64,000 nucleotides of DNA from Pusillimonas sp. (GTDB lineage Bacteria > Pseudomonadota > Gammaproteobacteria > Burkholderiales > Burkholderiaceae_B). How positions within the stretch are numbered: position 1 is the first letter of the stretch; every line of letters starts with the position of its first letter. The stretch is taken from positions 7,794-71,793 of the forward strand of contig JBATWU010000032.1 in assembly GCA_049672825.1 (NCBI GenBank). The letters are read 5' to 3'. The position numbers and the translations under genes were made by a program. Under the pieces are notes generated by a model. That model was given only the letters and a program-made list of their open reading frames with translations. It did no database searches and was not told the origin of the DNA. This document shows, piece after piece, positions 36,944 to 62,174 of the stretch.

Positions 36944-37154
36944 TGTCCAGCCTAAAGGCGCCTTGTTGGGGCGACGACAGAATGTCGAGTACGACTTCCG
37001 ATGGCCGACATAGACGTACGCCAAGCCCTGTAATCACGAACGGACGATTAATCAGGATCGGATGAGCCAACATGGCATCCAATAACTGATCATCTGTCAG
37101 GTCGAGGTTATCCAGGCCGAGCTGCGCATAGGGCGTACCCTTGTGTACCCTCAT
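36891..37154 (-). pseudogene. arsC: Truncated glutaredoxin-type arsenate reductase (R773 ArsC family) lacking the catalytic N-terminus
   Basis: The 87-aa ORF aligns with about residues 60-122 of E. coli ArsC: GTPYAQLGL...LTDDQLLDAMLAHPILINRPFVITGLGVRLCRPSEVVLDIL. The N-terminal ~55 aa with the HNPxCGTS catalytic Cys are absent. Its ATG overlaps the acr3 stop (ATGA). The last ~20 aa are non-homologous and run antisense into the AraC gene, 36891-36943. Confidence 0.7.
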
Positions 37155-38221
37155 CCTGCTTTGGCTTCATACCAGCCCTTTGAGCGATTTACGACGCGAA
37201 CCACGACCAGCATAATCGGCACCTCGATGAGCACGCCGACTACCGTGGCGAGCGCCGCACCCGATTGAAAACCGAACAGGCTGATCGCGGTAGCTACCGC
37301 CAGTTCGAAGAAATTGCTGGCGCCGATCAGGGCGGACGGCCCCGCCACACAATGGGCCACGCCGAACCGGCGATTCAGGTAATAGGCCAGGCCCGAGTTC
37401 AGTACGACCTGAATCAGAATCGGGATGGCCAGCAATAGGATAATCAGCGGCTTGTCAATGATGGCATTGCCCTGGAAGCCGAACAGCAGCACGAGCGTTG
37501 CCAGAAGCGCAGCAATGGAATAGGGACCTAATGCGCCGACGACGCGCCGATAGGTGGCTTCGCCCTTGGCAAGTAATGCCTTGCGTATGGCCTGCGCGAT
37601 GAGGACCGGGACAATGATGTACAGCGCCACGGAGGTGATAAGCGTATCCCATGGCACCGAGATCGAAGATAGCCCCAGCAGCAGCGCAACGACAGGCGCA
37701 AACGCCACGATCATGATGGCGTCGTTCAGCGCGACTTGCGATAGCGTGAAATACGGATCACCTTTGCAGAGCTGCGACCAGACAAAGACCATCGCGGTGC
37801 AGGGCGCGGCAGCCAGCAGAATTAACCCGGCCACATAACTGTCGAGCTGGTCCGCAGGCAGCCATGCCGCAAACAGATGCCGCACGAATAGCCAGGCCAG
37901 CAGCGCCATGGAAAAGGGTTTGACGAGCCAGTTTATGAATAGCGTTACGCCAATGCCGCGCCAGTGGCTTGTCACTTGCCCCATCGCGCCGAAATCAATC
38001 TTGATCAGCATGGGAACGATCATGACCCAGATCAGCAGACCCACCGGCAGATTGACTTGTGCCACCTCCAGCGCCGCGATGCCTTGAAACACGCCTGGCA
38101 TCGACTGGCCCAACAAAATGCCCGCAACGATACATAGAGCCACCCAAACGGTAAGATAGCGCTCAAAGAAACCAATGCCCCCACCCTGCGAAACGGCGGC
38201 CGCTTGTGCCACTGACTTCAT
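37151..38221 (-). CDS. acr3: ACR3-family arsenite efflux permease
   Basis: 356-aa ORF, about 10 TM. N-terminal block GFFERYLTVWVALCIVAGILLG and APCTAMVFVWS motif. Confidence 0.95.
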   Translation of the reverse strand: MKSVAQAAAVSQGGGIGFFERYLTVWVALCIVAGILLGQSMPGVFQGIAALEVAQVNLPVGLLIWVMIVPMLIKIDFGAMGQVTSHWRGIGVTLFINWLVKPFSMALLAWLFVRHLFAAWLPADQLDSYVAGLILLAAAPCTAMVFVWSQLCKGDPYFTLSQVALNDAIMIVAFAPVVALLLGLSSISVPWDTLITSVALYIIVPVLIAQAIRKALLAKGEATYRRVVGALGPYSIAALLATLVLLFGFQGNAIIDKPLIILLLAIPILIQVVLNSGLAYYLNRRFGVAHCVAGPSALIGASNFFELAVATAISLFGFQSGAALATVVGVLIEVPIMLVVVRVVNRSKGWYEAKAG

Positions 38222-38730
38222 TCTTGGGATTCCAAGGGCTGTTGACCGATCGCCCGCATTTGCGTTTGAATGGCGTTGCGATCCAGGATATGAAGCGGCA
38301 GGTTCTCAAACTGGCTGACGCGAGCCATGATTTGCCGGAAAACTTTGTTGAAAAGCGCACGCTTTTCCTCATCGCTACCCTCGAACGCGGCAGGGTCTTG
38401 AAACCCCCAGTGCGCCGTGATGGGCTTGCCTGGCCATACAGGGCAGGTTTCGCCCGCCGCTTGATCGCAAACCGTCAGGACAAAATCCATTTGGGGCGCA
38501 TCGGGCGCGGCAAACTCATCCCAGCCTTTGCTGCGCAGGGCGGAGGCGTCGTAGCCAATCGCCTCGCATCGCTCCACTGCGAAGGGGTTCACCTTGCCCG
38601 TTGGTTGGCTGCCAGCGCTATAGGCGCGAAAGCGCCCTTTGCCCAGCACATTGAAAAGCGCTTCGGCCATGATGCTTCGCGCTGAATTGCCAGTGCAAAG
38701 CACCAGCACATTGAAAGTTTTATCAGACAT
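38218..38730 (-). CDS. arsC: Arsenate reductase, LMW-PTPase (thioredoxin-coupled) type
   Basis: P-loop VLCTGNSARS at the N-terminus. 170 aa. 4-nt overlap with acr3. Confidence 0.9.
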   Translation of the reverse strand: MSDKTFNVLVLCTGNSARSIMAEALFNVLGKGRFRAYSAGSQPTGKVNPFAVERCEAIGYDASALRSKGWDEFAAPDAPQMDFVLTVCDQAAGETCPVWPGKPITAHWGFQDPAAFEGSDEEKRALFNKVFRQIMARVSQFENLPLHILDRNAIQTQMRAIGQQPLESQE

Positions 38731-38775
38731 GACGGGTTATCAGCTTGAGGTCGAAAGGGTGTGGGTTAATCGGGC

Positions 38776-39273
38776 TTAGCAACAAGACGGTTCGGGCTTA
38801 CTGCATGCATTTTCTGCTTTGGGCGGCGTAGCAAAAGAGTTTGGCTTGGAGGTGCAGCACGCGCTATCTGCGTCTAATGCCTGGCGGGATTGGCCATAGG
38901 TTGCTGCGCTTTCCAGCGTATGGAATGATTCCCAGGCAACACCCTGGGGGTCGATGGACCAGTACTTATCAGACTTGGCGTAGCAGCAGGTTGTATTGTT
39001 TTGCTGCTCCACAGGCAGGCTCGCGCTTGCCAGTCGCGCTTGAATTTCCGCCAGCTCGGCATCGTTCTCGACTTGAATGCCAAGGTGGTCCACACCCAGC
39101 TTGGCAGGCGCTGTACCCAGGGATGAAATGGCAAAATTCACCCGTGGATCTTCAAGCGCCCATTTTGCATAGTCTGATTTGACGATAGTGGGCTCTGCTG
39201 CAAATAACGCCGAGTAGTAGCGGATGCTGGCGGGCAGATCGGCTACGGCGACATGGACATGAAAGCGTTTCAT
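38776..39273 (-). CDS. arsI: ArsI/CadI-family glyoxalase-fold metalloenzyme (candidate C-As lyase)
   Basis: 165 aa. His5, His63 and Glu115 sit at the positions of the ArsI Fe(II) triad. The vicinal pair Cys96-Cys97 (TTCCYAK) sits at the ArsI substrate-binding position. Cys-rich C-terminal tail. Confidence 0.8.
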   Translation of the reverse strand: MKRFHVHVAVADLPASIRYYSALFAAEPTIVKSDYAKWALEDPRVNFAISSLGTAPAKLGVDHLGIQVENDAELAEIQARLASASLPVEQQNNTTCCYAKSDKYWSIDPQGVAWESFHTLESAATYGQSRQALDADSACCTSKPNSFATPPKAENACSKPEPSCC

Positions 39274-39605
39274 GATGAGGGCTCCGAGGTGATGTCACAG
39301 TTGCTTATGGGAGAGCATGGATTGCCGCCGCAGCAGTTCTCCGTCAGGTAAGCAAGCAGGTCATTCATCGTCTCGTAGCGCGCCGAATAAATGATTGACC
39401 GCCCATCCTGGCGACTAGCGAGCAATCCGGCTCGATACAGTTCTTTTAAGTGAAAGGACAATGACGATGCCGGCATGTTCATCAACTCGGCGATACGGCC
39501 TGCCGGCAAGCCCTCTGGCCCTGCTTGCACCAAGGTGCGAAAGACCGACAGGCGGATTGAGTGAGCTAGGGCGGCAAGCGCCTCAAGTGCGTTATTTGTT
39601 TCCAT
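39270..39605 (-). CDS. arsR: ArsR/SmtB-family metalloregulator
   Basis: wHTH block PAGRIAELMNMPASSLSFHLKELYRAGLL. C-terminal CCGGNPC triad (C91, C92, C97), like C-terminal As(III)-site ArsRs. Confidence 0.9.
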   Translation of the reverse strand: METNNALEALAALAHSIRLSVFRTLVQAGPEGLPAGRIAELMNMPASSLSFHLKELYRAGLLASRQDGRSIIYSARYETMNDLLAYLTENCCGGNPCSPISNCDITSEPSS

Positions 39606-39606
39606 G

Positions 39607-39624
39607 ATTCGACCATAGTCGAAT
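39607..39624. promoter_or_regulatory. Perfect 7-bp inverted repeat immediately upstream of arsR (candidate operator)
   Basis: ATTCGAC-cata-GTCGAAT starts 2 nt upstream of the arsR start codon. Confidence 0.3.
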
Positions 39625-40185: not shown

Positions 40186-40237
40186 GAGTGCCTCCTGCCA
40201 ATGATTATCATTGCCATCCCTTCAATCATTAATGGTA

Positions 40238-40252
40238 TGTTATAACATAACA
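40238..40252. promoter_or_regulatory. Zur box (zinc uptake regulator operator)
   Basis: TGTTATAACATAACA is an exact match to the TGTTAT-N3-ATAACA palindrome reported for beta/gamma-proteobacterial Zur (recalled as TGTTATDNHATAACA). It lies in the divergent intergenic region upstream of the first COG0523 gene. Confidence 0.7.
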
Positions 40253-40449
40253 TTTAAAGGCTGGGAAACCCATGTGAACTACGAGATAAGACCATGAACG
40301 TCTGACAAATGGCCGCGCATTCGAATTTCGCCGCGCGGTCATTGAAGTGCATGGCAAATGCTCCAGTTGCTGTGCGATTGAACGGGGCGGTCAATGCTGA
40401 TGCGGCTGGGCGCCAACAGTTTTTTTCTTATGACTTTAGATACCGAGCG

Positions 40450-41679
40450 ATGAACCTACCTACTTTTCAACCTGACTCTCGATTGCCCGTCACTGTCCTC
40501 TCCGGTTTTCTCGGCGCAGGCAAAACCACGCTGCTCAACCACATTCTGAACAACCGCGAGGGACGGCGCGTGGCGGTCATCGTCAACGACATGTCCGAGG
40601 TCAATATCGACGCCGCGCTGGTGCGCGAGGGCGGAGCCGAACTGTCCCGCACCGACGAGAAGCTGGTCGAAATGAGCAACGGCTGCATCTGCTGCACCTT
40701 GCGCGAAGACCTGCTGCTTGAAGTGGACCGTCTGGCCAAGGAGGGCCGATTCGACCAGCTCGTCATCGAATCCACCGGCATTTCCGAACCCTTGCCGGTC
40801 GCCGAAACTTTCACCTTCGAGGGAGAAGACGGCCGCAGCCTGGCCGAGGTGGCTCGCCTGGACACCATGGTGACGGTGGTCGATGCCTACAACTTCTTGC
40901 GCGACTACGGTTCGCGTGACAGCCTGCAAGCGCGCGGCGAATCCATGGGCGAAGAAGACGAGCGCACCGTGGTGGATCTGCTGATCGAACAGATCGAGTT
41001 TTGCGACGTCCTTGTGCTCAACAAGGTGGATTTGATCGACGAGCAAGCGCGTGAACGGTTGATGGCAATTCTGCGCACGCTGAACCCCAGGGCGTGCATC
41101 GAGGTGGCCGAGTTCGGCAAGGTGCCGCTGGATCGCGTGCTGGACACGGGCCTGTTCGATTTCCAGGAAGCGTCCAAGGCGCCCGGATGGCTGCAGGAAC
41201 TGCGCGGCAACCATACGCCCGAGACCGAGGAATACGGTATTCGCAGCTTCGTCTACCGCGCGCGCCGACCATTTCATCCGCAACGCTTCCATGACTATGT
41301 CGCAAGCGAATTGCCGGGCGTGGTGCGTTCCAAGGGCTTTTACTGGCTGGCAAGCCATCCGACACTGGCCGGCTCCTGGTCGCAGGCCGGCGCCATTGTT
41401 CGGCATGGCCCGGCAGGCTACTGGTGGGCGGCCATGCCGCCGGAGCGCTGGCCGCAGGACCCGGAAACTGTCCGTCTGATCCGCGAAAAATGGGACGACC
41501 GTGTGGGTGACGCGCGCCAGGAGCTGGTGCTGATCGGCATGGATATGGACGAGCGCGCGCTGCGCGCGCACTTCGATGCCTGTCTGCTGACCGAGGGGGA
41601 AATGGCCGTCGGTCCGGAGGTCTGGCAGCAGTGGCACACCCCCTTCGAACAGTGGCCCGAACGTCAACCCGCATTCTGA
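40450..41679 (+). CDS. COG0523-family G3E GTPase (ZigA/YeiR/CobW-like zinc metallochaperone)
   Basis: Start at [33 protein letters not shown] (Walker A); an upstream alternative is ATG 40309. CxCC motif GCICCTL. CobW C-terminal domain. Confidence 0.9.
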
Positions 41680-41692
41680 GTCATTCCCAAGC

Positions 41693-42190
41693 ATGATGGC
41701 ATCTTCGCAACCGCAACTGGATATTGATCAAGACGCGATCCAGACTGAGCTGGTTCAGGCCTTCGCTTGCCTGCCCGATTGGCCGCAGCGCTACCAGTAC
41801 CTGATCGATCTGGGCAGGACGCTGCAGGGGTTTGCGCAAGCGTATCGGATCGACCGATACAAGCTGCGTGGCTGCCAAGCCAGTGTCTGGCTGAAGCCTG
41901 AGTGGCGGGATGGCCGCATTTACTTCACCGGCACAAGCGACTCCCTCATCGTTGCGGGCTTGATGGCGCTCTTGTTTCGTCTCTATTCCGGCAGAACTTT
42001 TTCTGACGTGTTGACGGCCTCCCCCTGGTGTCTCAAAGAAATGGGGCTGCATCATCATTTATCGCCTCAGCGGGCGACGGGCCTGGCCGGCATGGTCGAG
42101 CGCATGCGTGAATTCGCCGTGCAATGCAGCCGGCCGGCATCTATCAACACTATGGATACACCCAGCAGGTTGGGGCACGCCGCCAACTGA
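41693..42190 (+). CDS. sufE: SufE-family sulfur acceptor protein
   Basis: Blocks LPDWPQRYQYLIDLG and the conserved Cys context KLRGCQASVWL. Confidence 0.85.
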   Translation: MMASSQPQLDIDQDAIQTELVQAFACLPDWPQRYQYLIDLGRTLQGFAQAYRIDRYKLRGCQASVWLKPEWRDGRIYFTGTSDSLIVAGLMALLFRLYSGRTFSDVLTASPWCLKEMGLHHHLSPQRATGLAGMVERMREFAVQCSRPASINTMDTPSRLGHAAN

Positions 42191-42303
42191 TCGAGCATAA
42201 ATTGGATACCGTACTTACCGACCTTCCCGATGCTTCAATCGCGCATAGCCAGCGCAGCGAAGCCTGCGTCGCCGTGACGCTGGCGTCTCAGGCACCGACC
42301 CGC

Positions 42304-43444
42304 ATGAACCATCCTGCCTCCACTCTCATACCCGTTACGCTGCTCACCGGCTTTCTGGGCAGCGGCAAGACCACAGTGCTCAACCACCTGGTACGCCAGA
42401 CCGAATTGGCCGACGCGTTGGTCATCATCAATGAGTTCGGTGAAATCTCCCTGGACCACCTGCTGTTCACCCATAGTGCCGAAAACCTTGTCATGGAAAT
42501 GAGTAGCGGCTGCCTGTGCTGCACCATCCGGGGAGATTTGGTCAAGACGCTATCGGACATGACTTGGCGCTTCTCGCGTAACGGACAGCGCCAGTTCAAC
42601 CGCGTGGTGATCGAAACCACGGGCCTGGCCGACCCGGCCCCAATCGTTCACACGCTGATGACCCACCCGCAGGTGGTCAACCGATACCGCCTGGACGGCA
42701 TCGTGACAACCCTTGATCTGGCCACCGGCAACGCCACCCTGAACCGCCACGTAGAAGCCGTGCGCCAGGCCGCGATCGCCGATTGCCTGCTGCTCACCAA
42801 AGCAGACATGGTGGACACCGAGACGCGCGATGCGTTCCTGCGCCGGCTCGACGCCATCAACCCGGCCGCGTCGCGCTGGGAGGTGCGCCACGGCGAAATC
42901 GCGGCGACCAAGGTGCTGGATCTTGGACTGTTCTCGACCGAGGGCAAGGCGCCCGACGTCGAGCGCTGGCTGCGCGAGGAAGCATACGCGGACGACACGC
43001 ATCGCCATGATAAGGAAGTCGGCCATGCCCATGCCCACCATCATGAGGATGAGCATCATCGTGACCATGACGGCCATGGTCACGAGGCCCATCGCCACGA
43101 TGTCAATCGCCACGACGATCACATCCGCGCATTCTGCTTCGCAGTGGACGAACCAATTCCCGAAGACCTGTTGGCCGCCTGGCTGGAGGTGCTGATGAGT
43201 TTCGTCGGAGAGAACATCCTGCGCGTCAAGGGTATCCTGAACATCGAGGGGAGCGACCAGCCGGTGGTCATCCACGGTGTGCAGCATATTTTTCATCCAC
43301 CCGCGACACTCCCGGCGCTGGCCCAGCGCGGATCGGCGCTCGCGGCTGGTGTTCATCACCCGGGATGTGAGCCGTCAAAATATCGAAGACACCTTCCGGG
43401 CCTTTCGCGATGTCTTGCCCCAGCTGCGGGAGGCGGCCGCATGA
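42304..43444 (+). pseudogene. Second COG0523 GTPase with His-rich insert; apparent 1-nt frameshift near 43318
   Basis: Start at MNHPASTLIPVTLLTGFLGSGKTTVLNHLV. CxCC motif GCLCCTI. His-rich stretch HRHDKEVGHAHAHHHEDEHHRDHDGHGHEAHRHDVNRHDDH. After ...FHPPATLP the canonical C-terminus (R)[42 protein letters not shown]-stop is encoded in the +1 frame, with TGA at 43442-43444. The as-written frame instead reads through into cysS, giving the 910-aa ORF 42124-44856. Confidence 0.7.
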
Positions 43445-44856
43445 TGCCCGCCATCCATTTGTACAACACCTTGACGCGAAGCAAGGAGTCGCTGCGCACC
43501 ACAAGCCCGGATCACGTCACGATGTACGTGTGCGGCCCGACCGTCTACAACTACGCGCATCTGGGCAACGCGCGGCCGGCCGTGGTCTTCGACGTGCTCG
43601 CCCGACTGCTGCGTCACGTCTACCCGCATGTCACCTATGCGCGCAACTTCACCGACGTGGACGACAAGATCAACGCGGCAGCGGCGGCGGCAGACGTGCC
43701 CATCGGCGCAATCACGGCACGCTACATCGACGCTTACCACGAAGACATGCACGCCTTGGGCGTGCTGGCGCCGGATCTGGCGCCCCGCGTCACCGAGCAC
43801 ATACCGGCCATCATCGATCTCATCCGCATCTTGATCGCACGCGGGCACGCCTATGAAGCCCAAGGGCATGTGCTGTTCGACGTAGCCTCTTTTCCGGAAT
43901 ATGGGCGCCTGTCCGGGCGCAGGCCCCAGGACATGATGGCCGGTGCGCGCGTGGAAGTCGCGCCCTACAAGCGCAATCCCCTGGATTTTGTATTGTGGAA
44001 GCCGTCCACGCCTGAGCTGCCTGGGTGGGACAGCCCCTGGGGACGCGGGCGCCCCGGCTGGCACATCGAATGCACGGCCATGATCGGCCAGCACCTGGGC
44101 CAGACGCTCGACATTCATGGCGGAGGCCAGGACCTGATCTTCCCGCACCACGAAAACGAAATCGCTCAGGGTACGTGCGCCCACGGCGTCCTGTACTGCC
44201 GTACCTGGGTTCACAACAGCTTTGTCACCGTCGATGGACAGAAGATGTCCAAATCACTGGGCAATGTATTGCTAGTCCGCGATTTGTTAAAACTTGCGCC
44301 CGGCGAGGCCATACGGCTTGCGCTGTTGTCTTCGCACTACCGCCACCCCTTGGATTGGACCGACGAACGGCTGACTAATGCGTGCCGCACTTTGGTTCGT
44401 TTTTACCGCGCGCTTGAAAAGACAGCGCACATCGAGGCCGCTGAGGGCGTAGGGCCTGATGAGGAAGTGTTCGCTGCATTGGCCAATGACATCAATACAC
44501 CGGCGGCACTTGCTCGGCTGCACCAGTTAGCGAGCGAGCTGGAGCGGGCGTCGTCCGATAACGTGCGCATGAACCTGAAGGCTCGCCTGCTCTACTCCGC
44601 CCGCTTGCTCGGCTTGCTGCAGGCCGATGCTGCGCGCGCGGTCGCCGACCTGCAGGGCTATCAAGCCTTGCCCACGTCGGACGTCATCGATGCCGCCTGG
44701 GTAGAGCAGTTAATTGAGCAGCGCACACAGGCCCGCGCGCATAATGATTTTGCCCGCGCCGATGTCCTGAAGAGGCAGTTGGAAGATGCCGGAATCACAG
44801 TGCAGGACTCAACCGAGGGCACCACTTGGCGAGTCGGAATGGAGGCCGTCTTATGA
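43441..44856 (+). CDS. cysS: Cysteinyl-tRNA synthetase
   Basis: Starts [19 protein letters not shown]-type motif [10 protein letters not shown]. Zn-ligand contexts [18 protein letters not shown] and [18 protein letters not shown] are retained. KMSKS motif is present. The ATG overlaps the +1-frame stop of the COG0523 gene (ATGA). Confidence 0.9.
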
Positions 44857-45098
44857 TCCTCGGCCGCATCCTCATCCTCCTCATTCGCGGCTATCAGCTT
44901 GGCATCAGCCCGTTGATGGGCAGGAGTTGCCGCTTCCATCCTTCATGTTCGCAGTACGCCATCGAGGCGTTGCGCGCGCAGGGGGCGTTGCGGGGGATGT
45001 GGCTGACCGTCTGCCGGGTCGGGCGCTGCCACCCTTGGCATTCAGGCGGCCACGACCCAGTGCCGCCGAGACGTGGAGCGGGGAAACTGCCTCGATGA
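44853..45098 (+). CDS. yidD: YidD-family membrane protein insertion efficiency factor
   Basis: [52 protein letters not shown] overlap with the cysS stop. Confidence 0.85.
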
Positions 45099-45192
45099 TC
45101 CGTGCGCCAAATCCTGTCCACCCTGAAACAGAGACCGATACGCCATGAAACCATCCTGTTGATTTTTCCATTTTGCTCACAAAGGAGCCCTC

Positions 45193-45339
45193 ATGAAAGT
45201 TCTCTCCTCTTTGAAAGACGCCAAAACGCGCCACCGCGATTGCCAGGTCGTGCGCCGCCGCGGCCGTATCTACATCATCTGCAAGTCCAATCCGCGTTTC
45301 AAGGCCCGCCAGGGCGGCGCCAAAAACAGGAACGCCTGA
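45193..45339 (+). CDS. rpmJ: Ribosomal protein L36, C-minus (YkgO/type B, zinc-independent) paralogue
   Basis: This 48-aa ORF is not in the ORF track: [48 protein letters not shown]. It closely resembles E. coli YkgO ([41 protein letters not shown]...). AAAGGAG lies upstream. Confidence 0.9.
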
Positions 45340-46460
45340 TGCACCGCCTGGATGTCGCCATCGTCGGTGCTGGTGCTGCCGGGATCGGCATGGCCCTGGC
45401 GCTGCAGAAAGTACCGGGGCTGAAGTACGGCGTACTGGAGGCCGGGCGCGTCGGCGAGTCGTTCCGGCGCTGGCCGGCGCAGACCCGCTTTATCACGCCG
45501 TCCTTTCACAGCAACCCCTTCGGCCTGGCTGACCTGAATGCCGTGAACGAGCCCAGCTCGCCGGCGATTCACGCGGGCGCCGAGCATCTGAGCGGCCCCC
45601 AATACGCCGAGTACCTGGCCTTCATCGCCAAGGGTCATGAGCTACCTATCGCCAGCGATTGCAAGGTGGAAGCGGTGGCGGCGGTGACAGGTGGCGGCTT
45701 CATCCTGGATACCTCGAAGGGCAGGCTGCAGGCGGGTTTCTTGGCCTGGGCGACGGGCGAGTACCAGTTTCCCGATCTGGCTCCTTTCCCGGGGGCCCAA
45801 TGGTGCGCGCACTACGCCCAAGTCGCCGATTGGGCGGCCTTCAAGGCCCGCCGCTATACCGTGATCGGCGGCTACGAGAGCGGCGTGGACGCGGCGGTCA
45901 ACTTGGTCAAGCTCGGGCGCAAGGTACGCCTACTTGCGCGCAAGTCCACGTGGGATCCGCAAGGCCCGCACGACCCGAGTCTGTCGCTCTCACCCTACAC
46001 CCGGCAGCGGCTCTACGAGGCGGTCGATACCGGCAGGCTGGAGATTCTGTTCGGGGTCGACGTGATCGGGGTGACGCAGAACGAAGGCGGTGTTTTCCGT
46101 ATCCACGCAGGCGATGGCCGGTATTGGGACGAGAAACAGGCGCCGATCCTGGGAACGGGATTCGTCAAAGGCGGCGGTGCCCAGCAGATCGCCGAACTCT
46201 GGGGCTGGGACGAGGATGGCCGCGTAATGCTGTCCGAAGCCGACGAATCGACCATCACCCCGGGCCTCTTCCTGGTCGGTCCGCAGGTACGCCACGATAA
46301 GCGCATCTACTGCTTTATCTATAAGTTCCGCCAGCGCTTCGGCTTGATCGCGGACAGCATCGGCCAGTGCCTGGATCGGGACACGAGCGCATTGAAAACC
46401 GGCGCCGGCGCCTGGGGGCCCTTCGGCAACAGCGAATGCTGCGAGGGCTGCGAATGCTGA
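45339..46460 (+). CDS. FAD/NAD(P)-binding pyridine-nucleotide-disulfide-type oxidoreductase with Cys-rich C-terminal tail
   Basis: Start at [22 protein letters not shown] (GxGxxG), sharing one base with the rpmJ stop (TGATG). A second dinucleotide fold lies at YTVIGGYESGVDAA. The C-terminus is ...NSECCEGCEC. Confidence 0.8.
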   Translation: MHRLDVAIVGAGAAGIGMALALQKVPGLKYGVLEAGRVGESFRRWPAQTRFITPSFHSNPFGLADLNAVNEPSSPAIHAGAEHLSGPQYAEYLAFIAKGHELPIASDCKVEAVAAVTGGGFILDTSKGRLQAGFLAWATGEYQFPDLAPFPGAQWCAHYAQVADWAAFKARRYTVIGGYESGVDAAVNLVKLGRKVRLLARKSTWDPQGPHDPSLSLSPYTRQRLYEAVDTGRLEILFGVDVIGVTQNEGGVFRIHAGDGRYWDEKQAPILGTGFVKGGGAQQIAELWGWDEDGRVMLSEADESTITPGLFLVGPQVRHDKRIYCFIYKFRQRFGLIADSIGQCLDRDTSALKTGAGAWGPFGNSECCEGCEC

Positions 46461-47515
46461 CCGTCCTCAAGAACATTGTCCGACCATCGTGGGTTTCCGT
46501 ACTGCTGGTCGCCAGCATTCTCGGCGGTGCGGTCGTGGGCCACCAGTGGCCGGTGGCGGGCGAGGCGCTGCGCGATTACGTGGACGGCACTCTGCTGGCG
46601 CTGGTCGTGCTGCTTTTCTTCGGCGTGCGCTTCGAGGCCGTCGTGCGCGCCTGGAGCAACTTGCGCTTTCTGGGTCTGGCCCTGCTTGCCACTTACCTTT
46701 TTGTTCCCGTCATCAGCTACGCCATTGCCTCGGTCGCGTTGTCGGCATACCCCCTGTTCATGGTCGGGCTGGTGATCTACTTCATGTCGCCCTGCACGGA
46801 CTGGTTCCTGGGTTTCACGCGACTGGCGGGCGGCAACGTGGCCCTGGGCACGGCCCTCATCCCGATCAATATGATGGTGCAGCTTCTGCTGTATCCGGTC
46901 TATCTCTATCTTTTCACGCGCAGTGCCGTTCCTATCCAGGCCGACGTCATCGGCAGCACGCTGCTGCACTGGTTTCTCGTGCCGTTCGCCGTGGGGGTGG
47001 CGGCCCATTACCTCCTGCGCCGCCTGCTGGCCGCCGAACGGTTCGATCGTCTGCTGCGCTGGGTCGACCTGGCAACACCCTGGGTCATCGCACTGCTGGT
47101 GGTGGAGATCTTCGCCGGCAACATCGCCGTCATCCTCCAGCACAGCGCCGTGTTCGGCTGGGTACTGCTGGCGGTATTCGTCTTCTTCGTCGCCACCTTT
47201 TTGCTCGGCGAGGCGATGAGCCGCCTGGGCCGGCTCGCCTATCCCGAACACGCCCTGCTGACCATGACCGTCGCGGCCCGCAACGCCCCGTTGATGCTCG
47301 CCGTGACCATGGTCGCGTTGCCGAATCAGCCGCTGGTGTATGCCGCCATCGTCATCGGCATGCTGGTGGAGTTTCCCCATCTCACGCTATTGCAGCGGGT
47401 GCTGCTTGGCCGGCGCGGCCAACACGAGCACGTCGACTCGCCTGGCTCAATACCAACCCCGCATGCCATGGCGTCAAACGAGCCGCCACGCAATTTACCC
47501 TCAAAGAACCCATGA
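46454..47515 (+). CDS. Multi-TM permease of the ACR3/bile-acid:sodium symporter (SBF-like) superfamily, substrate unknown
   Basis: Start at MLTVLKNIV overlaps the upstream stop (ATGCTGA). About 10 hydrophobic segments. The block FMSPCTDWFLGFTRLAGGN resembles the ACR3 APCTAMV region. Confidence 0.7.
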   Translation: MLTVLKNIVRPSWVSVLLVASILGGAVVGHQWPVAGEALRDYVDGTLLALVVLLFFGVRFEAVVRAWSNLRFLGLALLATYLFVPVISYAIASVALSAYPLFMVGLVIYFMSPCTDWFLGFTRLAGGNVALGTALIPINMMVQLLLYPVYLYLFTRSAVPIQADVIGSTLLHWFLVPFAVGVAAHYLLRRLLAAERFDRLLRWVDLATPWVIALLVVEIFAGNIAVILQHSAVFGWVLLAVFVFFVATFLLGEAMSRLGRLAYPEHALLTMTVAARNAPLMLAVTMVALPNQPLVYAAIVIGMLVEFPHLTLLQRVLLGRRGQHEHVDSPGSIPTPHAMASNEPPRNLPSKNP

Positions 47516-47757
47516 TCCGTAAGAATCCCCGCGGCGACCCGACGGACCTGGCCAGCTTTCCCCGCACCTCGGCCGACGCTAGCGAATTCTCCGAAGACGT
47601 GGCGCGCACCAACAACAGTCTGGTGCTGGGATACAAGACTATCCAAAACGAACTCCGAGCCGCCATGAACGACATCGCTCCCGATACGCTCGTAGCCCAG
47701 CCGTTCGACGGCACGGGGATAGGTGGTTTATTCGATGAAGTCATTCACGATGCTTAA
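47512..47757 (+). CDS. Hypothetical 81-aa acidic protein, translationally coupled on both sides
   Basis: [85 protein letters not shown] overlap with the permease stop. Its own stop lies 8 nt inside the next gene. No family recognised. Confidence 0.4.
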   Translation: MIRKNPRGDPTDLASFPRTSADASEFSEDVARTNNSLVLGYKTIQNELRAAMNDIAPDTLVAQPFDGTGIGGLFDEVIHDA

Positions 47758-49165
47758 CGACCTGGACATTGCCGATCGGCTGGGCCGCCGCCATGCCGAT
47801 CTTTGCGTGACGGGCGCCACCGTCATGACGCCCAGCGGTCGCACGATGTGCGATGTGGTCTGCCTGGCTGGTCGCATCGTGGCGCTGGACGCCACCGGGT
47901 GGACCGCAGACACCACTCTCGATGCGGCGGGCCTGCATGTGCTGCCCGGAGTGATCGACAGCCAGGTTCACTTCCGCGAGCCCGGACTCACGCACAAAGA
48001 AACCTTCGAGGCGGGTACGCGCGGCGCGGCGCTGGGCGGCGTGACCGGTGTTTTCGAGATGCCCAACACGAATCCGCTGACGCTGACGGTTGACGACTTG
48101 CAGGCCAAGCTCGACCGCGCCCAAGGCTGCGCCTGGTGCGACTACGCCTTCTACATCGGCGGCTCGGCGGTGAACGCGGAGCAGCTCGCCGAGCTGGAGC
48201 GGCTGCCCGGCTGCGCGGGCGTCAAGGTCTTCATGGGCAGTTCTTTCGGCGATCTCCTGGCCGACGACGAAGACGTGCTGCGCCGGATCGTGCGCCATGG
48301 CCGCCGCCGCATGGCGGTGCACGCCGAGGATGAGGCCCGGCTGCGCGAGCGCAAGATTTTGGTGCAGGAAAGCGGCGACGTGCGCGACCATCCCGCCTGG
48401 CGCGATGTAACCAGTGCCCTGGCGGCCACCCAGCGCATCGTTCGCCTGGCGGCCGAGGTGGACCGCCGGCTGCACATCCTGCACGTCTCCTCGGCAGAGG
48501 AAATGGCCTTCCTGGCGGCGCACAAGCACCGCGTCAGCGTGGAGGCCACGCCGCACCACCTGACCCTGGCCGCACCGGACTGCTATGAGCGCCTGGGCAG
48601 CTTTGCCCAGATGAATCCGCCGGTGCGGGAGCCGCACCACCGCGAAGCCCTATGGCAGGCGGTGCGAGACGGCGTGGTGGACGTGCTGGGCAGCGACCAT
48701 GCGCCGCACACCTTGCAGGAAAAGGCGCAGCCTTATCCGCAGTCGCCCAGCGGCATGACCGGCGTGCAGACCTTGGTGCCGATCATGCTCGATCATGTGC
48801 ATGCGGGCCGGCTCAGCCTGGAACGGCTGGTGGATCTCACCAGCGCAGGGCCGGCCCGCATCTTCGGCCTGGCGGGCAAGGGGCGCATTGCGCTCGGCTA
48901 CGACGCCGACCTGACGCTGGTCGATCTGAAGGCCCGCCGAGAGATTACCAACCGCTGGATTGCCAGCGTGGCGGGCTGGACACCTTACGACGGCGTACGA
49001 GTGACAGGATGGCCGATAGCCTCCGTGGTGCGCGGTCATGTCGTAGTGCGGGATGAAACCTTGGCCGGACAACCGTTGGGCGGCCCCCTTGCATTCCTGG
49101 AGGCGGCGTCGCCCCAGGGCCACGGGTCTTTACAAGGGCCGGCCGGAACCGGGGGAACATCATGA
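47750..49165 (+). CDS. Dihydroorotase/allantoinase-like cyclic amidohydrolase paralogue
   Basis: Start at [11 protein letters not shown]. Motifs: [13 protein letters not shown] (canonical D-x-H-x-H with Gln in place of the first His), [29 protein letters not shown] and GSDHAPH. Confidence 0.85.
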
Positions 49166-49329
49166 ACGATAGCGGCGAATTGAAACGCGCGGGGCTGAAA
49201 GCGACGCTACCGCAGCTGCGGATATTGGACCTGTTCGAGGAAACGGACCAGCGACACCTGTCGGCAGAGGATGGTTATCGTCTTCTGCTGGATAAGAACG
49301 TGGAGAGTGCGAGCATTGGCACCTCATGA
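49162..49329 (+). pseudogene. Fur-family regulator, N-terminal 55-aa fragment only
   Basis: This ORF is not in the ORF track: [55 protein letters not shown]-stop. It aligns with E. coli Fur residues ~8-55 (LKKAGLKVTLPRLKILEVLQEPDNHHVSAEDLYKRLID). The recognition helix, dimerisation domain and metal sites are missing. ATGA overlap with the upstream stop. Confidence 0.6.
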
Positions 49330-49354
49330 CACCATTGACGACAAGGAGGTCAGC

Positions 49355-49891
49355 ATGACCACTCAAACCGATACCCCTTCGCCCGCCGATAGTGTGGCCG
49401 GGCACGATACTACGACGGCTGTGCGTTTTGCCGCTAGGACTTCGGTCGAACAAGTTGAAGAAGGTACCGCACTGGCACCCAAGTTCGACCGCGACGGGCT
49501 CATCCCCTGCGTGACCACCGATGCCGATACCGGGGAGGTGCTGATGTTGGGCTACATGAACGCCGAAGCCCTACACATGACGATCGAAACCGGTGCGGCG
49601 CATTATTGGAGCCGGTCACGCCAGACGGTGTGGCACAAAGGCGCCACCAGTGGGCTGGTGCAGGCGGTCGAGGAATTGCGCATTGACGACGACCAGGATG
49701 CCGTCTGGCTGCGCGCGCGGGTGGCCGGCTCGGGCGCAAGCTGCCATGTGGGGTATCGGTCCTGCTTCTATCGGCGCGTTCCGATCGGAAACGAACGCAC
49801 GCAAGGCGATGCGCTGGTCTTCAGGGAAGCCGACAAAAAATTTGACCCTAAACAGGTCTACGGCGATGCGCCAAATCCCACTATTCTGTGA
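49355..49891 (+). CDS. hisI: Phosphoribosyl-AMP cyclohydrolase (HisI) paralogue
   Basis: ATG follows AAGGAGG. PRA-CH core [80 protein letters not shown]. The canonical DCDxD reads DDDQD here. Confidence 0.9.
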
Positions 49892-50024
49892 ACATAGACA
49901 ATGGCGAGCGCGTCCGGATGGATTTCGCGAGTCGCTGCTCGCTATAGCGGGCAGATATCCACACCCTTGGAGAGTTCCCAATGAACAGATTTGATTCCTA
50001 CTGGCATGGAGGCATGCTGGCAAA

Positions 50025-50228
50025 ATGACCTATGATCCCAATAACATCTTTGCCAAGATTCTACGCGGTGAAGCGGCTGGCCAGACCGTACCGCATTGTC
50101 ACTTCCACGTCATCCCGAGAGGACCGGACACGATGTTCCGTGACCATGCGGCTGTTCCTGCTCAACCAGAGGCGCTAGAAATAGTCGCCGAGCGAATTCG
50201 GGCCTGCCTACAGGCCGATACTGCGTGA
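50025..50228 (+). pseudogene. HIT-family (histidine triad) gene with large internal in-frame deletion
   Basis: The 67-aa ORF MTYDPNNIFAKILRGE|AAGQTVPHCHFHVIPR... joins the HIT N-terminus directly to the HxHxH motif region. About 70 residues of the expected core are absent. Confidence 0.6.
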
Positions 50229-50668
50229 GGTCAGATGCCGGCACTTTGCTCGTTCAATGCACCGCGCATCGCCAGCAAGGTTTCGTTCTTAATCGTAGCG
50301 ATCAGTGCTTGAGCTTTTTGGGTGACCGCCACCATTTCTTCGGCCGGTTCGGGCTCATTCCCCGTTTATGGGGAAGAGCTGCAAGTCCTTGTTTTCGCGA
50401 TGGAAATGGGGCTTGGTGAGACGGGGTGGGAATAGGATATGGTGGCTGGGGCGGAATCTGATTGATGGCCGGGAAGCACGTAGAGACGTGCTTTTCCGGA
50501 CTTATGTGAACTGCGGGGTACAAGCTGGGGTACAAGTGCAAAAAAACAACAAAACTGGCCTGCGGTTCGATCTCTATGTCGGATTCGAGCAGTGGGATCA
50601 GTCAGGTGTTCTCGGCACGCAACGCAGTGAGGTCATTGCGAGTTTCCATCAAATATCTGCATCTCCAT

Positions 50669-51862
50669 TCACATGTCGTTCGTCGATTCGCTACCACGCT
50701 TGATTCTCCGTACTTCTAATTCCCGTCGTGTTTTGTCCAGCTCCTCGGCCAGCAGCTTTTCATCCGGCAGCGCCGTCCGGTATTCAGCTGTCAGCACTTT
50801 GTTGGATAAACCCTCCAGCGTATAGTGGGCCTCGTTGCTGCCTTTGCCTGCACACAGGATCAGCCCTATAGGTGGGTTTTCGCCAGGTTTCATCCAATGT
50901 GTTCGTGCGTAATTCAGGTACATGTGCATTTGACCGGCATCGGCGTAACTAAACTGGCCGACTTTGAGATCAATAACCAGCAAACATTTCAAACTGCGGT
51001 GAAAGAACAAGAGGTCGATACGAAACCAACTATCGTCCAGGCGCAGGCGCCGCTGACGGCCGACAAAGGCAAAATCGTCTCCTAGCTCCAATAAGAAGTC
51101 GGCTAAATGCTGGATCAGTGCCTCTTCAAGGTCGGACTCAGAATACTCGTCCTTGAGATTGAGAAACTCCAGCACGAACGGGTCTTTAATTGCCTGTTCG
51201 GGCGTGATGACATCACCAGGTGCGGCTACCTCACCCTTTTCCAGCATCGCAGTCTTGTTGTGCGATAGGGCGGTGCGCTCGTAAAACTGGCTGTTCACTT
51301 GCCGGTCGAGCTGGCGCACTGACCAACCGCAACGTAGCGTCTCGGTTTCGTAGAAAGCACGGGCCTGTGGATTCTTGACCGAGAGTAGGCGCACGTAGGC
51401 TGACCATGGCAGCGGGAAAGCCTTGGCTAGAGAGGCGAGGTCGATGGAATTCCGAGTCGCCGTTCCGGAATTTCTAGCAGGTACAGAATTGCCGGAAATT
51501 GCCTGGCGAATTAGAGGAAGCGTGAATTGCGCAGACACTGTCTGCGCAATCTGGTCAGTTGGCCAAGCTAGATAAAACAGTCGCATTTGTTCGAGGTTTC
51601 GCTTGGAAAAACCACGACCAAAGCGAGCACTCAAGTCGGTTGCCAGCCGCACCATCAAGGCCTCGCCGTAGTGGGCCCGTTCCTGCCCGCCCTGTTCGAA
51701 TTCCACAATACGACGACCAATTTCCCAATAGCTGGCGGTCATTAACGAATTGACGCTACGTGCGGCGGCACCGCGGGCGGAATCCAGCAGCGTGACGATG
51801 TCGGTGTGGACTGCTGCGTAAGCGGCCTGATTAGACACGGCGGGCGTGCTGTGGTCGTTCAT
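50669..51862 (-). CDS. DUF1016/YhcG-family PD-(D/E)XK nuclease-fold protein
   Basis: 397-aa ORF. N-terminal helical region: YWEIGRRIVEFEQGGQERAHYGEALMVRLATDLSARFGRGFSKRNLEQMRLFY. C-terminal nuclease core: IDLLFFHRSLKCLLVIDLKVGQFSYADAGQMHMYLNY. Confidence 0.85.
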   Translation of the reverse strand: MNDHSTPAVSNQAAYAAVHTDIVTLLDSARGAAARSVNSLMTASYWEIGRRIVEFEQGGQERAHYGEALMVRLATDLSARFGRGFSKRNLEQMRLFYLAWPTDQIAQTVSAQFTLPLIRQAISGNSVPARNSGTATRNSIDLASLAKAFPLPWSAYVRLLSVKNPQARAFYETETLRCGWSVRQLDRQVNSQFYERTALSHNKTAMLEKGEVAAPGDVITPEQAIKDPFVLEFLNLKDEYSESDLEEALIQHLADFLLELGDDFAFVGRQRRLRLDDSWFRIDLLFFHRSLKCLLVIDLKVGQFSYADAGQMHMYLNYARTHWMKPGENPPIGLILCAGKGSNEAHYTLEGLSNKVLTAEYRTALPDEKLLAEELDKTRRELEVRRIKRGSESTNDM

Positions 51863-51984
51863 ACCTGCTCCTTAGACATAGCATTATTTTGCACGACCCT
51901 TGCCTCATATGGGGCGGCATCCAATTGGCACTGTGCAGGGTCCGTACTATCAATAAAAATTAAAGCAAACAATAGCACCTTGGC

Positions 51985-52281
51985 CTAGCTGGAAAATGCC
52001 TTGTTCCGTTCAATGAGCGCATGCAGGCTGGCTGCTGTGATGCCGCTGGACCGCTTGCCTATCTTGATGAGTACCAGCTCGCCTTCGTTGACTAACCGAT
52101 AGATGGTTGATCGGGACACCCCAAGTTTCGCCTCTGCTGTGTGAATGCGATACAGAAGTGCCTGGTCGGATTGCTGCAGGGCTTGATGTCCGGTTGACGG
52201 GTAGCCAAAGATGTTTGGCAGGGTCTGTTCCTTCATTTCTTCCTCCATTAAACCTTGGGAAACATCCTGAGCGGTAATCAC
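51985..52281 (-). CDS. AlpA/excisionase-type (HTH_17) small DNA-binding protein
   Basis: HTH block AEAKLGVSRSTIYRLVNEGELVLIKIGKRS. The start is uncertain; internal Met codons lie near 52248-52236. Confidence 0.7.
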   Translation of the reverse strand: MITAQDVSQGLMEEEMKEQTLPNIFGYPSTGHQALQQSDQALLYRIHTAEAKLGVSRSTIYRLVNEGELVLIKIGKRSSGITAASLHALIERNKAFSS

Positions 52282-52813
52282 CCAAGATGCTTTCCAAAGC
52301 AGGCGCGGTCAGCGCCTTCGTGACTGGTCCGCCAAGATGCAGCGATGGAAACCAGTTGCTTGGATCATTTTCGGTAGAGCCCGCCGCTGACCCACTATCG
52401 TGGTTCGTCGGGTTGCTGAAAACTGCGGTCTTTGCCGCTGTCATCAATGGATTACGCGCCATCCATCGAATGTGGCCTGCCTTTGGCAGTACCGGCGTCC
52501 GTAGTTACGGATCGTCATCTACTTCCCCCGGTTTATGCCAGTCGCTACCGGCCCAAGAGAGAAATGATTTTTCACCTGCTTTACTCCTACCCAGGTGCTT
52601 ATCGCCCCGCATGATGCCGGCGACACGGGTAGCCGCGCACTCGCACCGCCCGTTGTAGGGCAGGGCGCGGTATTCATCGGTGTCGTGTTGTTAAAGAGCA
52701 GGCTTGTAGCAATCATTACGTATCTACTTGCTATAGTCAATATGTAAGTAATAATAAATAGTCGTGTAGAAGACTAAAAGCTCAAGAAAACCGAAAAATC
52801 TGCTTTGGAGTGA

Positions 52814-52854
52814 CACAAAAAGAATCGCCCTGGTTCGCTATGGAACCCAGGGCG
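52814..52854 (-). terminator. Intrinsic terminator downstream of the XRE gene (hairpin could act bidirectionally)
   Basis: The plus strand reads CGCCCTGGTTC-gctatg-GAACCCAGGGCG, an 11-12 bp stem with one bulge. On the minus strand it is followed directly by ATTCTTTTTG. On the plus strand a T-run follows about 10 nt later. Confidence 0.6.
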
Positions 52855-52928
52855 GTTCGGGTATTTTTATTGTTTGTTTTTGTATCTTGGGTGATAGCTG
52901 AGGACTCAATCCACTAGGTCGTCGGTGC

Positions 52929-53303
52929 TCAATCGTGGTCTTTGGTGCGTTTGGCTTGTTGCCCGATCTTCATCTTTATGTAGTCACCGATATCTTCCAG
53001 TACGGGGGCAGGCAGTTCCTCCAACGTATACCTAGAGGTTTCCGGCCATGGCCATTCCATCTCAAACATCTCTCCCTTGCCAGTGACAAGCCATTCAGCA
53101 CGAACGTGAAGGGCTGCCGCAATCCAAACGATGTGACGGGAAGTCTCGTTGCGACCGTTTTCAATATGGGCGATAGCACTTTGGCTTATAGGGGGGTCGA
53201 GGAGGTTGGCCAATGCTTCTTGGGATAGGCCGCGCTTCTTACGTGCGGCAAGTAAGCGTTCGCCTATGCTGCTTGTAGGACTCGGCGTCATGGAATTCTT
53301 CAA
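52929..53303 (-). CDS. XRE/Cro-CI family HTH regulator
   Basis: HTH_3 block IGERLLAARKKRGLSQEALANLLDPPISQSAIAHIENGRN. The C-terminal ~55 aa belong to no recognised domain. Confidence 0.8.
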   Translation of the reverse strand: MKNSMTPSPTSSIGERLLAARKKRGLSQEALANLLDPPISQSAIAHIENGRNETSRHIVWIAAALHVRAEWLVTGKGEMFEMEWPWPETSRYTLEELPAPVLEDIGDYIKMKIGQQAKRTKDHD

Positions 53304-53651
53304 TTGGTGGATGCATTGTTGGTGAGTTGTAAGTGTATATGTAATTTAAAAACATTGCTTGTCTAATATGAATTCAACCGTATTCTATTAGGTAAGTAAT
53401 CATAATGGGCTATTGTGACATTTAATGATACGGCGTGAGAGGAAAGAATGGTCAAGAGTATGACTATTCACTTGCCAGTGAGTTGTATCACTTTTTGATA
53501 GTAGGGACGCGATTTTTCTACCCCGAGACAGCTAGGGTATAAATATGAGTGGGGCTGAAAGATAGCCCATCGGTGCTTAATATGCTCTGCTAAGGCGAGC
53601 AGCACGGAAGGCTTTTTTACGGCCGGCAGTTAAGCTAGCGGCTGTCTAGAC

Positions 53652-54971
53652 TCATGGCGTATCTTCACTTCTTCGCCGCTTCCAGAGCGTAGTTCGTGAT
53701 ATACCAAGTCGCTTTGCTGCTTCACCTACCCTTCCACCGCACTCAGCGATCACTCGCTCAATCTCTTCTCGTTCTGCGTCTGCACGTGCGCGGTAAAGAG
53801 AGGGCTGTGTGCCTGGTTGCTGAGACATTTCAGGAAATATGTCGCTGACATCGAGTACGGATCTGTCGGCTAATGCGCAGGCCTGCACGATCCTATTTGT
53901 AAGTTCACGCACATTCCCGGGCCACTGATGCGTGACAAGTGCCTTTTTTGCTGCGTCAGCAAGCGAGAAGGGTGCTAACGGATTGTTGGAGCCGTAAGCT
54001 TCCAAGAATTTTTCTGTCAGCGGAATGACATCTGCCACTCGTTCCCGCAGAGAGGGAAGGGTAAGTTGAGCGTTCTGCAAGCGATAGTAAAGATCAGCAC
54101 GCAACTGACCCGACTCAAGAGCCGCGTTGATATCTGCGGTGGTCGCTGCCACGACACGTCCCTTGAAAGGTACAAACGTATTGCCCCCGACTCTGTGGAA
54201 ACCCCCATCCTGCAGTGCACGAGCAAGAAGAATTTGCATCTTCGGATGCATTTCACAAATTTCATCTAAGAATAATGTGCCTGTGCCTACCTGCTCCAAC
54301 AAACCCATACTAGGCATCGAGGCGCTATGTGCAGGGGCGATTTCACTGCCGAAATACTTACTTTCTAACGTCGTCTCAGTGATGTCTGCACAGCTGACAG
54401 GGATCAAAGGCGCTGGTGGCCGCCCAGAGGCTTCATGGATTAGCCGGGCAGCCATTTCCTTGCCCGTGCCACTTTCTCCTACGAGTAATATTGAAAAACT
54501 CTCTCGCGCCAACCGTCTTAAATGAGATACAACCCGGCCCATCTCCGGTGTTTCATAGTGAAAGCCGCGTAACGGAGTCTTTACCCCACGCGGCAGTGTG
54601 GCACGAGCAAGGCTAGCCTTGATTCGCCTGACAAGTTCATTAATGTCATACGGCTTTATCAAATAGTCAGTGGCACCTGTTTTGACCAGGTCAATGGCTT
54701 GCTGAATATCTGCGTATGCCGTAGCAAATATAACGTCCGTTTCCCATATGAGCTTCCCCGCGCGCTTGTATAAGTCCGTACCGGTTCCGTCGGGAAGCCT
54801 AATGTCGCACAGCATGAGTGCAGGTTCGTACTTCTCAAGGCTTCCCAGCGCTTCAGAAACAGTTTGTGCCCAGTGAACCGACATCCCTTCCAAACGTAGG
54901 CGTTGTGCTACGGCCCCACCCAAGACGCCATCGTCTTCAACCAAGAGTACGTCGATATTTTCTCGTTTCAT
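53652..54971 (-). CDS. NtrC-family response regulator (REC + AAA+ sigma-54-interaction-type domain + Fis HTH) lacking the GAFTGA loop
   Basis: REC block: VLLVEDD..., LMLCDIRLPDGTG. Walker A GESGTGKE. Walker B TLFLDEI. WPGNVREL. Fis-type HTH AAKRLGISRTTLWKR. Where ESELFGHEKGAFTGA is expected, the sequence reads ESKYFGSEIAPAHSAS. Confidence 0.9.
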   Translation of the reverse strand: MKRENIDVLLVEDDGVLGGAVAQRLRLEGMSVHWAQTVSEALGSLEKYEPALMLCDIRLPDGTGTDLYKRAGKLIWETDVIFATAYADIQQAIDLVKTGATDYLIKPYDINELVRRIKASLARATLPRGVKTPLRGFHYETPEMGRVVSHLRRLARESFSILLVGESGTGKEMAARLIHEASGRPPAPLIPVSCADITETTLESKYFGSEIAPAHSASMPSMGLLEQVGTGTLFLDEICEMHPKMQILLARALQDGGFHRVGGNTFVPFKGRVVAATTADINAALESGQLRADLYYRLQNAQLTLPSLRERVADVIPLTEKFLEAYGSNNPLAPFSLADAAKKALVTHQWPGNVRELTNRIVQACALADRSVLDVSDIFPEMSQQPGTQPSLYRARADAEREEIERVIAECGGRVGEAAKRLGISRTTLWKRRRSEDTP

Positions 54972-56371: not shown

Positions 56372-56431
56372 AATATCGGACTCCTCTTGTCACGCACTGG
56401 CATATTATTAATGCTGCGCCACAGCCAGAGC

Positions 56432-56851: not shown

Positions 56852-56852
56852 T

Positions 56853-62094: not shown

Positions 62095-62174
62095 GCCTCA
62101 AAGGCCAGAGAACAAAAATATGCTGGCGTTCATTTCATAACAATTTCATATCGCGCATCAATGAATAAAAAAAA

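Follow-up and report, generated by a model that had tools for sequence, protein, structure and literature searches.

A probable recent one-base insertion in a His-rich COG0523 gene creates an apparent COG0523-CysRS fusion in an eroding Zur-type cluster

Results

A zinc-limitation gene cluster in the window

The window, by which we mean the whole 64,000-nucleotide stretch of Pusillimonas sp. DNA that was analysed, carries a gene cluster of the zinc-limitation type in which one gene is broken by a change of frame and others survive only in part. The features of the cluster are as follows; those at the frame break itself are given in the next section.

40232-40248, copy of the putative Zur box with one mismatch, overlapping the next feature
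40237..40253, no strand assigned, putative Zur-box palindrome ATGTTAT-AAC-ATAACAT (ATGTTATAACATAACAT), perfect, from a motif scan
40450..41679, plus strand, COG0523 paralogue no. 1, 409 aa from the ATG at 40450, intact, with Pfam cobW and a complete CobW_C
41693..42190, plus strand, sufE-like gene, intact (Pfam SufE, 3e-38)
42202..42303, plus strand, remnant of folE2 (FolE_IB / GCHY-1): TTG start and 13 N-terminal codons, 19 internal codons and a junction codon (R)
42304..43317, plus strand, cobW (His-rich COG0523) upstream of the frameshift: GFLGSGKTT P-loop, GCLCC, His-rich stretch and CobW_C positions 1 to ~62
43441..44856, plus strand, cysS (CysRS paralogue), 471 aa, intact, from Pfam and alignment to E. 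coli CysRS
44853..45098, plus strand, yidD, overlapping cysS by ATGA
45193-45339, L36 paralogue (rpmJ)
47533-47655, remnant of a hexapeptide (gamma-carbonic-anhydrase-like) gene: the last 41 codons by comparison with Pollutimonas bauzanensis
49162-49329, truncated second Fur-family gene, 55 aa (~48 codons kept) against 151 aa in P. bauzanensis

The gene order thus runs from COG0523 no. 1 (95% identical to a P. bauzanensis-like copy) through sufE, the folE2 remnant, the frameshifted cobW, cysS and yidD to the L36 paralogue, and continues with Pyr_redox_3, an SBF transporter, a pyrC/allB-like amidohydrolase and a hisI paralogue. Zur-regulated COG0523 clusters with paralogues of zinc-dependent enzymes were described by Haas et al. 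in 2009; in these, CysRS paralogues, which retain their zinc ligands, share both regulation and location with COG0523 genes (PMC2770081). The same co-localisation is found in the window, where COG0523 genes lie with CysRS, PyrC, HisI, FolE2, L36 and Cam paralogues. Zur-box-type matches with at most two mismatches number three, against 0.05 expected by chance, and the type of palindrome at 40237-40253, together with the gene content that it precedes (PMC2770081), points to a predicted Zur site upstream of the cluster. No zur gene lies within the window; P. bauzanensis has a Fur-family zur just upstream of its cluster.

A second point of reference is the Cupriavidus metallidurans operon Op0317f_1, comprising cobW1, folE_IB2, cysS2, queD, allB and a carbonic anhydrase gene, for which the experimentally reported binding partner of CobW1 is FolE_IB2 and not CysS2 (PMC10882993). 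With the Haas clusters and Op0317f_1 the window shares COG0523, folE2 (as a remnant), cysS with its zinc ligands and a pyrC/allB-like gene; it differs in that its cobW is frameshifted and its folE2, hexapeptide and Fur-family genes are degraded. The operon type is an already known, well-described Zur-regulated kind. Neither the Rfam nor the tRNA scan gave a match in the window, and a promoter and terminator scan gave chance-level matches only, with none on the plus strand between sufE and yidD.

Several features lie further afield in the window. Just upstream of the Zur-type cluster, 37151-39620 on the minus strand holds an arsenic-resistance-like set (an SBF/ACR3-type transporter, an ArsC-like LMW phosphatase and a glyoxalase-family protein), at the place taken by a TonB receptor and zur in P. 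bauzanensis. A complete trimeric autotransporter adhesin of 2137 aa occupies 4248-10661, with an ESPR signal, YadA head, stalk repeats and YadA anchor; it is flanked by genes for TonB-dependent receptors with STN domains at 53-2509 and, further along, at 20267-22765. Right after the hisI paralogue the G+C content falls from ~0.62-0.64 to ~0.50-0.55. The low-G+C region at 50000-64000, in which a sigma-54 activator / histidine kinase pair (53652-56371) follows a YhcG/DUF1016 PDDEXK nuclease gene (50669-51862), may have been acquired horizontally.

One extra base splits the CobW C-terminal domain between two frames

Between cobW and cysS, the reading frames and signals overlap in the following manner.

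42124..44856, plus strand, fused ORF as listed, 910 aa
43277..43444, plus strand, separate +1-frame ORF, 55 aa, holding the CobW C-terminus
43317..43318, plus strand, extra-base site (GCG-C-TGG at 43315-43321), read CCG GCG C TGG, from the orthologue alignment and the indel list
43318..43440, plus strand, out-of-frame 'linker' LAQRGSALAAGVHHPGCEPSKYRRHLPGLSRCLAPAAGGGR, an overprint of the conserved cobW 3' end
43319..43444, plus strand, 3' end of cobW, read in the +1 frame: WPSADRRSRLVFITRDV...REAAA (41 codons) and TGA, equivalent to roughly the C-terminal 30 residues of E. coli YjiA
43428..43433, plus strand, Shine-Dalgarno GGGAGG, 7 nt before the cysS ATG

A first-pass annotation had described the 910-aa ORF as a COG0523-CysRS fusion. 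That a fused ORF is present is correct; its first 60 residues, however, are not COG0523 and consist of the sufE 3' end read out of frame and the 34-codon folE2 remnant. The ORF is composed, in order, of this sufE-3' overprint, the folE2 remnant, cobW', the linker and cysS, and from the cobW ATG at 42304 the fused product would be 850 aa. Pfam places cobW at residues 70-249, positions 1-70 of the 94-position CobW_C profile at residues 334-402, and a full CysRS at residues 460-903 (tRNA-synt_1e 2.3e-118, DALR_2, CysS_C). Positions 57-93 of CobW_C are instead matched by the 55-aa +1-frame ORF (E = 5e-7), and CobW_C is complete in no single frame: its first two-thirds or so lie in the written frame, to be followed by 41 out-of-frame residues and then by CysRS. 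The +1-frame match is not a chance resemblance, as this tail is identical at 40 of its 41 residues to the CobW C-terminus of the closest relative (on contig L081, below); the canonical CobW C-terminus that had been proposed for this frame is thereby recovered.

Upstream of the break, the gene has the marks of COG0523/G3E proteins. The P-loop GFLGSGKTT is present (PF02492, 2.1e-43) and the CxCC motif, SSGCLCCT, aligns with GCICC of E. coli YjiA, the closest solved COG0523 structure (PDB 1NIJ/4IXM), to which the G-domain aligns at E = 5e-42. With the frame repaired, the alignment also takes in the C-terminal domain and runs to residue 317 of the 318 of YjiA. The window protein differs from YjiA by a His-rich insertion of ~45 residues and, as written, by having no equivalent of about the last 30 YjiA residues.

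Three-frame translation locates the switch: the written frame reads ...FHPPATLPA and then LAQRGS..., while the +1 frame reads ...RRWPSADRRSRLVFITRDV...REAAA-TGA, with its TGA (43442-43444) overlapping the cysS ATG (43441-43443) as an ATGA, as had been noted earlier. Dropping one base at 43317/43318 gives ...HIFHPPATLPAWPSADRR..., in agreement with the PAWPS of all orthologues and with the earlier suggestion that removal of one base would restore PAWPSADRR. The written allele with the extra base is CCGGCGCTGG; alleles one base shorter would be CCGGCCTGG or CCGGCGTGG. The extra base sits outside any homopolymer. The linker, for which a lack of family resemblance had been claimed, indeed has no family match, and no protein in a collection of 5.8 billion clusters shares it. 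In another locus, L006, the alternative frame yields a similar 'LAQRGSSLALGVH...' peptide, which indicates that the 41-residue linker is an overprint of conserved cobW without a history of its own.

Downstream of the break, cysS has the properties of a class I CysRS: a catalytic domain, KMSKS, an anticodon-binding domain and, by alignment to 1LI5, all four zinc ligands (C28/C209/H234/E238, E. coli numbering). Where the window has the Shine-Dalgarno sequence of cysS, L081, L082 and L002 likewise have a purine-rich stretch of the GGGAG type. In the source's own record, CysRS appears as a protein by itself, 470 aa long (P0001), and a cobW product is missing, which suggests that cobW was annotated as a pseudogene by the depositor. 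An exact look-up of the 470-aa CysRS in the contig index gave no match.

Orthologous loci keep cobW and cysS as separate genes

A search with the repaired cobW protein as query, run over one genome per species, gave 514 relatives. Each of the best 80 of the 514 matches through the C-terminus in one tblastn segment. In ten of these 80, drawn from several proteobacterial lineages, cysS lies directly 3' of cobW, often with yidD next; nine of these ten syntenic loci have a cobW/cysS overlap (ATGA or GTGA), and the syntenic orthologues read ...HIFHPPxxLxxWPxxDRRSR.VFITRD... in a single frame.

Two relatives of ~92% DNA identity were also compared. One was reached through P0002, a CysRS 93% identical to the window's in a large protein collection; it sits on a 6.4-kb contig, L081, with sufE, folE2, an intact 381-aa cobW, a 471-aa cysS overlapping cobW by 4 nt, rpmJ2 and Pyr_redox_3. 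The other, L084, was found by scanning metagenome contigs for a DNA pattern that accommodates both alleles; it belongs to the same species-level lineage as P. bauzanensis and carries an intact 383-aa cobW. In every orthologous locus examined, these two included, cobW and cysS are separate genes. A fused frame shared by orthologues, which would have spoken against a frameshift, was looked for and not encountered; the frameshift is therefore lineage-specific and does not descend from an ancestral fusion.

Aligned at the nucleotide level with L081, Bordetella genomosp. 10 and four further, more distant loci, the window stands out by exactly one additional column, at GCG-C-TGG, which bears out the single-base frameshift first proposed at about 43318. 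The relatives read CCG GCC TGG (L084), CCG GCT TGG (L081) and, among more distant orthologues, GCC, GCG or GCT before TGG. Judged by this alignment, the event is a single-base insertion into an ancestral GCC-TGG. The extra base in cobW is the sole frame-breaking coding indel in the ~5.5 kb common to the window and L081, and all other cluster genes of the window match L084 in a single frame.

Accessory genes of the cluster are eroding in the window and its relatives

Relative to L081, folE2 has suffered two deletions of 564 and 254 nt (818 nt in total) that leave 34 codons, in frame with cobW and with the TTG start at 42202 retained. The hexapeptide and second Fur-family genes are truncated as listed above, and a 124-aa ORF of P. 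bauzanensis is missing. Exact look-ups of the flanking YidD and SufE proteins led to the same strain in Logan run SRR28062772, contigs of which are 100% identical to the window over 40683-42373 (L086) and 43932-51754 (L085). The folE2, hexapeptide and Fur-family losses are confirmed by L085 and L086; since this separate assembly shows them at 100% identity, they are not sequencing errors. A candidate second frame break at 46367-47757 resolved into an ordinary SBF-family gene, which ends at 47515, and a small ORF after it.

Relatives have lost other members of the set. In P. bauzanensis, folE2 is absent, cysS is deleted in at least three runs and cobW is intact; in L084 (reverse complement, ~4524-4703) and L087 (7149-7328), what is left of cysS is its first 20 codons, which continue in frame into the C-terminal half of yidD, and the resulting cysS'-yidD' chimera is a 59-aa ORF that overlaps the intact cobW by ATGA. 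In Bordetella genomosp. 10, folE2 is kept and cobW encodes 154 aa, having lost the whole GTPase domain in frame (L082, 5540-6004), such that the P-loop is joined directly to the His-rich and C-terminal part. COG0523 no. 1 of the same species has a frame change in the NCBI assembly (L082, ~3380-4556) and appears as pieces of 151 and 229 aa in Logan L083. The losses of cobW and cysS in relatives are independent of each other. Decay of cobW following a prior loss of its partner FolE_IB2 was also considered, and the relatives are inconsistent with it: P. bauzanensis has kept cobW without folE2, and Bordetella genomosp. 10 has a crippled cobW beside its folE2. Judged by gene content, this clade can evidently do without its accessory zinc-limitation genes, and their complement is in flux.

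Discussion

A probable recent insertion that inactivates cobW

We consider it likely that a recent, real one-nucleotide insertion has inactivated cobW in an eroding, Zur-box-preceded cluster of a Pollutimonas-like (Alcaligenaceae) lineage. The mutation is favoured because the extra base is not in a homopolymer, is the only frame-breaking indel in the shared region, lies among long intact ORFs and is accompanied by local decay. The window contains several ORFs of more than 800 aa and the complete, repetitive 2137-aa trimeric autotransporter gene, and these long intact ORFs, together with the non-homopolymer site of the insertion, speak for a good assembly.

The following sequence of events can be proposed. 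One nucleotide would have been inserted in the His-rich COG0523 gene, converting an ancestral GCC-TGG into GCG-C-TGG at 43317/43318 and shifting cobW into the frame of cysS, where the lack of a stop in 123 nt would yield the long fused ORF. Ribosomes starting at the cobW ATG would make a chimera of ~94 kDa; its length would be 850-884 aa, depending on whether translation begins at that ATG or at the surviving folE2 TTG at 42202. Lacking the last strand and helix of CobW_C, the chimera would probably misfold and fail as a metallochaperone. The replaced segment includes the most conserved strand of CobW_C, with the invariant RSR-VFI, and chaperone function is therefore likely to be lost. Free CysRS would presumably still be made by separate initiation at GGGAGG-N7-ATG.

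Between the window and L081, dN/dS is 0.10 for cobW and 0.12 for cysS. Relaxed selection on cobW is not seen, the codons after the shift being preserved as described above; the change is thus either very recent or an artefact, and the dN/dS pattern fits both equally well.

A possible sequencing or assembly error

That the deposited consensus alone carries the extra base, and that the organism has intact, separate cobW and cysS genes, is unlikely but not far-fetched. Purifying selection has acted strongly on cobW up to the present, as the dN/dS of 0.10 and the preserved post-shift codons attest, and the site is known from a single assembly: the exact 910-aa fused product and its out-of-frame tail were found on no other record, and the two-allele scan of metagenome contigs returned the intact allele only, in L084. 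Of the Logan contigs from SRR28062772, L086 ends at 42373 and L085 begins at 43932, and the frameshift site falls in the gap between them; this break on both sides of cobW and the 5' half of cysS may reflect low coverage or co-existing variants. Against an error stand the position of the extra base outside any homopolymer, the integrity of long ORFs across the window, among them the repetitive 6.4-kb adhesin gene, and the single-frame agreement with L081 and L084 everywhere else in the cluster. Furthermore, several deletions in the same cluster are confirmed by an independent assembly, and in the related Bordetella genomosp. 10 a COG0523 gene is split across frames in two assemblies.

A hypothetical functional chaperone-CysRS fusion

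The first-pass annotation had also raised the prospect that a real mutation physically tethers a zinc chaperone to its zinc-dependent client, so that the COG0523-CysRS chimera is made and is useful. We regard this as highly improbable, and give equally little credence to its fuller form, in which a chimera that is stable under zinc starvation, composed of folE2'/CobW GTPase, the His-rich stretch, a crippled CobW_C and full CysRS, aminoacylates and gains from the zinc-binding module. If true, the locus would be a spontaneous natural test of chaperone-client tethering. The fused ORF is continuous, its CysRS part retains all four zinc ligands, COG0523 and CysRS paralogues share Zur regulons (PMC2770081), and N-terminal extensions of CysRS are tolerated in nature, as in the NusB-, hexapeptide- and mTERF-CysRS proteins P0137, P0167 and P0269, which are cluster representatives in a representative library. 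Like the window ORF, these are fusions at the CysRS N-terminus; unlike it, none has a COG0523 domain.

The arrangement of the two genes accounts for the fusion without recourse to function. The ATGA overlap places cysS in the -1 frame relative to cobW, and thus any +1 insertion moves the upstream part of cobW into the cysS frame. Given this overlap, a one-nucleotide insertion and a cysS frame that stays open for the 123 nt from the insertion to the cysS ATG, the fused ORF is an automatic by-product of frame arithmetic. An open stretch of 123 nt is unremarkable in this G+C-rich DNA, and of nine orthologues about four have a cysS frame without a stop for at least that distance upstream, so that the same fusion would be possible there.

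Protein searches did not recover a counterpart. Among the best 120 matches (at least 707 bits) to the fused ORF in 5.8e9 clustered proteins, none is a COG0523-CysRS fusion, and all are CysRS-only with ~55% query coverage; the best 150 of an exhaustive HMMER search of 1.84e9 representative proteins likewise contain no such fusion and are all single-domain. The extra modules that Pfam finds on the small number of long CysRS proteins are NusB, hexapeptide, mTERF or TPR, and not COG0523. Natural CysRS fusion architectures include NusB-CysRS (P0137), hexapeptide-CysRS (P0167, possibly CysE-like), mTERF-CysRS (P0269) and CysRS-TPR (P0147). A shared architecture with a conserved linker, as an evolved fusion would possess, was found in no syntenic locus and in no protein search.

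Other observations weigh against tethering. The shift replaces 41 residues at the end of CobW_C, the invariant RSR-VFI strand among them; cysS has a Shine-Dalgarno sequence of its own; the mutation is too recent to show selection; relatives have lost cobW and cysS independently; and the partner reported for the homologous CobW1 of C. metallidurans is FolE_IB2 (PMC10882993), the gene for which is deleted in the window. The proposal of a chaperone tethered to its client is not supported by these findings.

Programmed recoding, whether +1 ribosomal frameshifting or transcriptional slippage restoring full-length CobW, is extremely improbable: nothing specific favours it beyond a T5 run at 43289-43293, 25 nt upstream of the frameshift site; the rescue window has no slippery heptamer, 0-frame stop, rare codon or upstream SD-like stimulator; the RNA 3' of the site is no more structured than shuffles (z = 0.24); and the shifted arrangement is not conserved, all orthologues being in one frame, by which this reading is effectively refuted.

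What the locus means

A recent insertion that turned cobW into a pseudogene remains the explanation that we prefer. Read in this manner, the locus shows a commonplace frameshift in an operon of known type and is of little importance as a discovery. Frameshift pseudogenes that merge ATGA-coupled operon genes arise in the same way, from an indel of one base close to where the upstream gene ends, and come to be annotated either as a 'fusion' or as a pseudogene with an intact downstream gene; nothing distinguishes the window from these cases except that the folE2 remnant is also in frame, so that three former genes share one ORF. The locus is a clean example of how a one-nucleotide indel in ATGA-coupled genes creates a spurious fusion ORF, and it would be a mistake to pass on the COG0523-CysRS 'fusion' as a new domain architecture.

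The wider interest lies in the natural knock-outs of the Pollutimonas/Bordetella-related clade: cobW is lost and cysS kept in the window, cobW is without its GTPase domain and cysS kept in Bordetella genomosp. 10, and cobW is kept without cysS in P. bauzanensis. These combinations indicate that the His-rich COG0523 protein and the CysRS paralogue are not obligately interdependent, and the independence of cobW and cysS bears on the identity of the clients of COG0523 metallochaperones.
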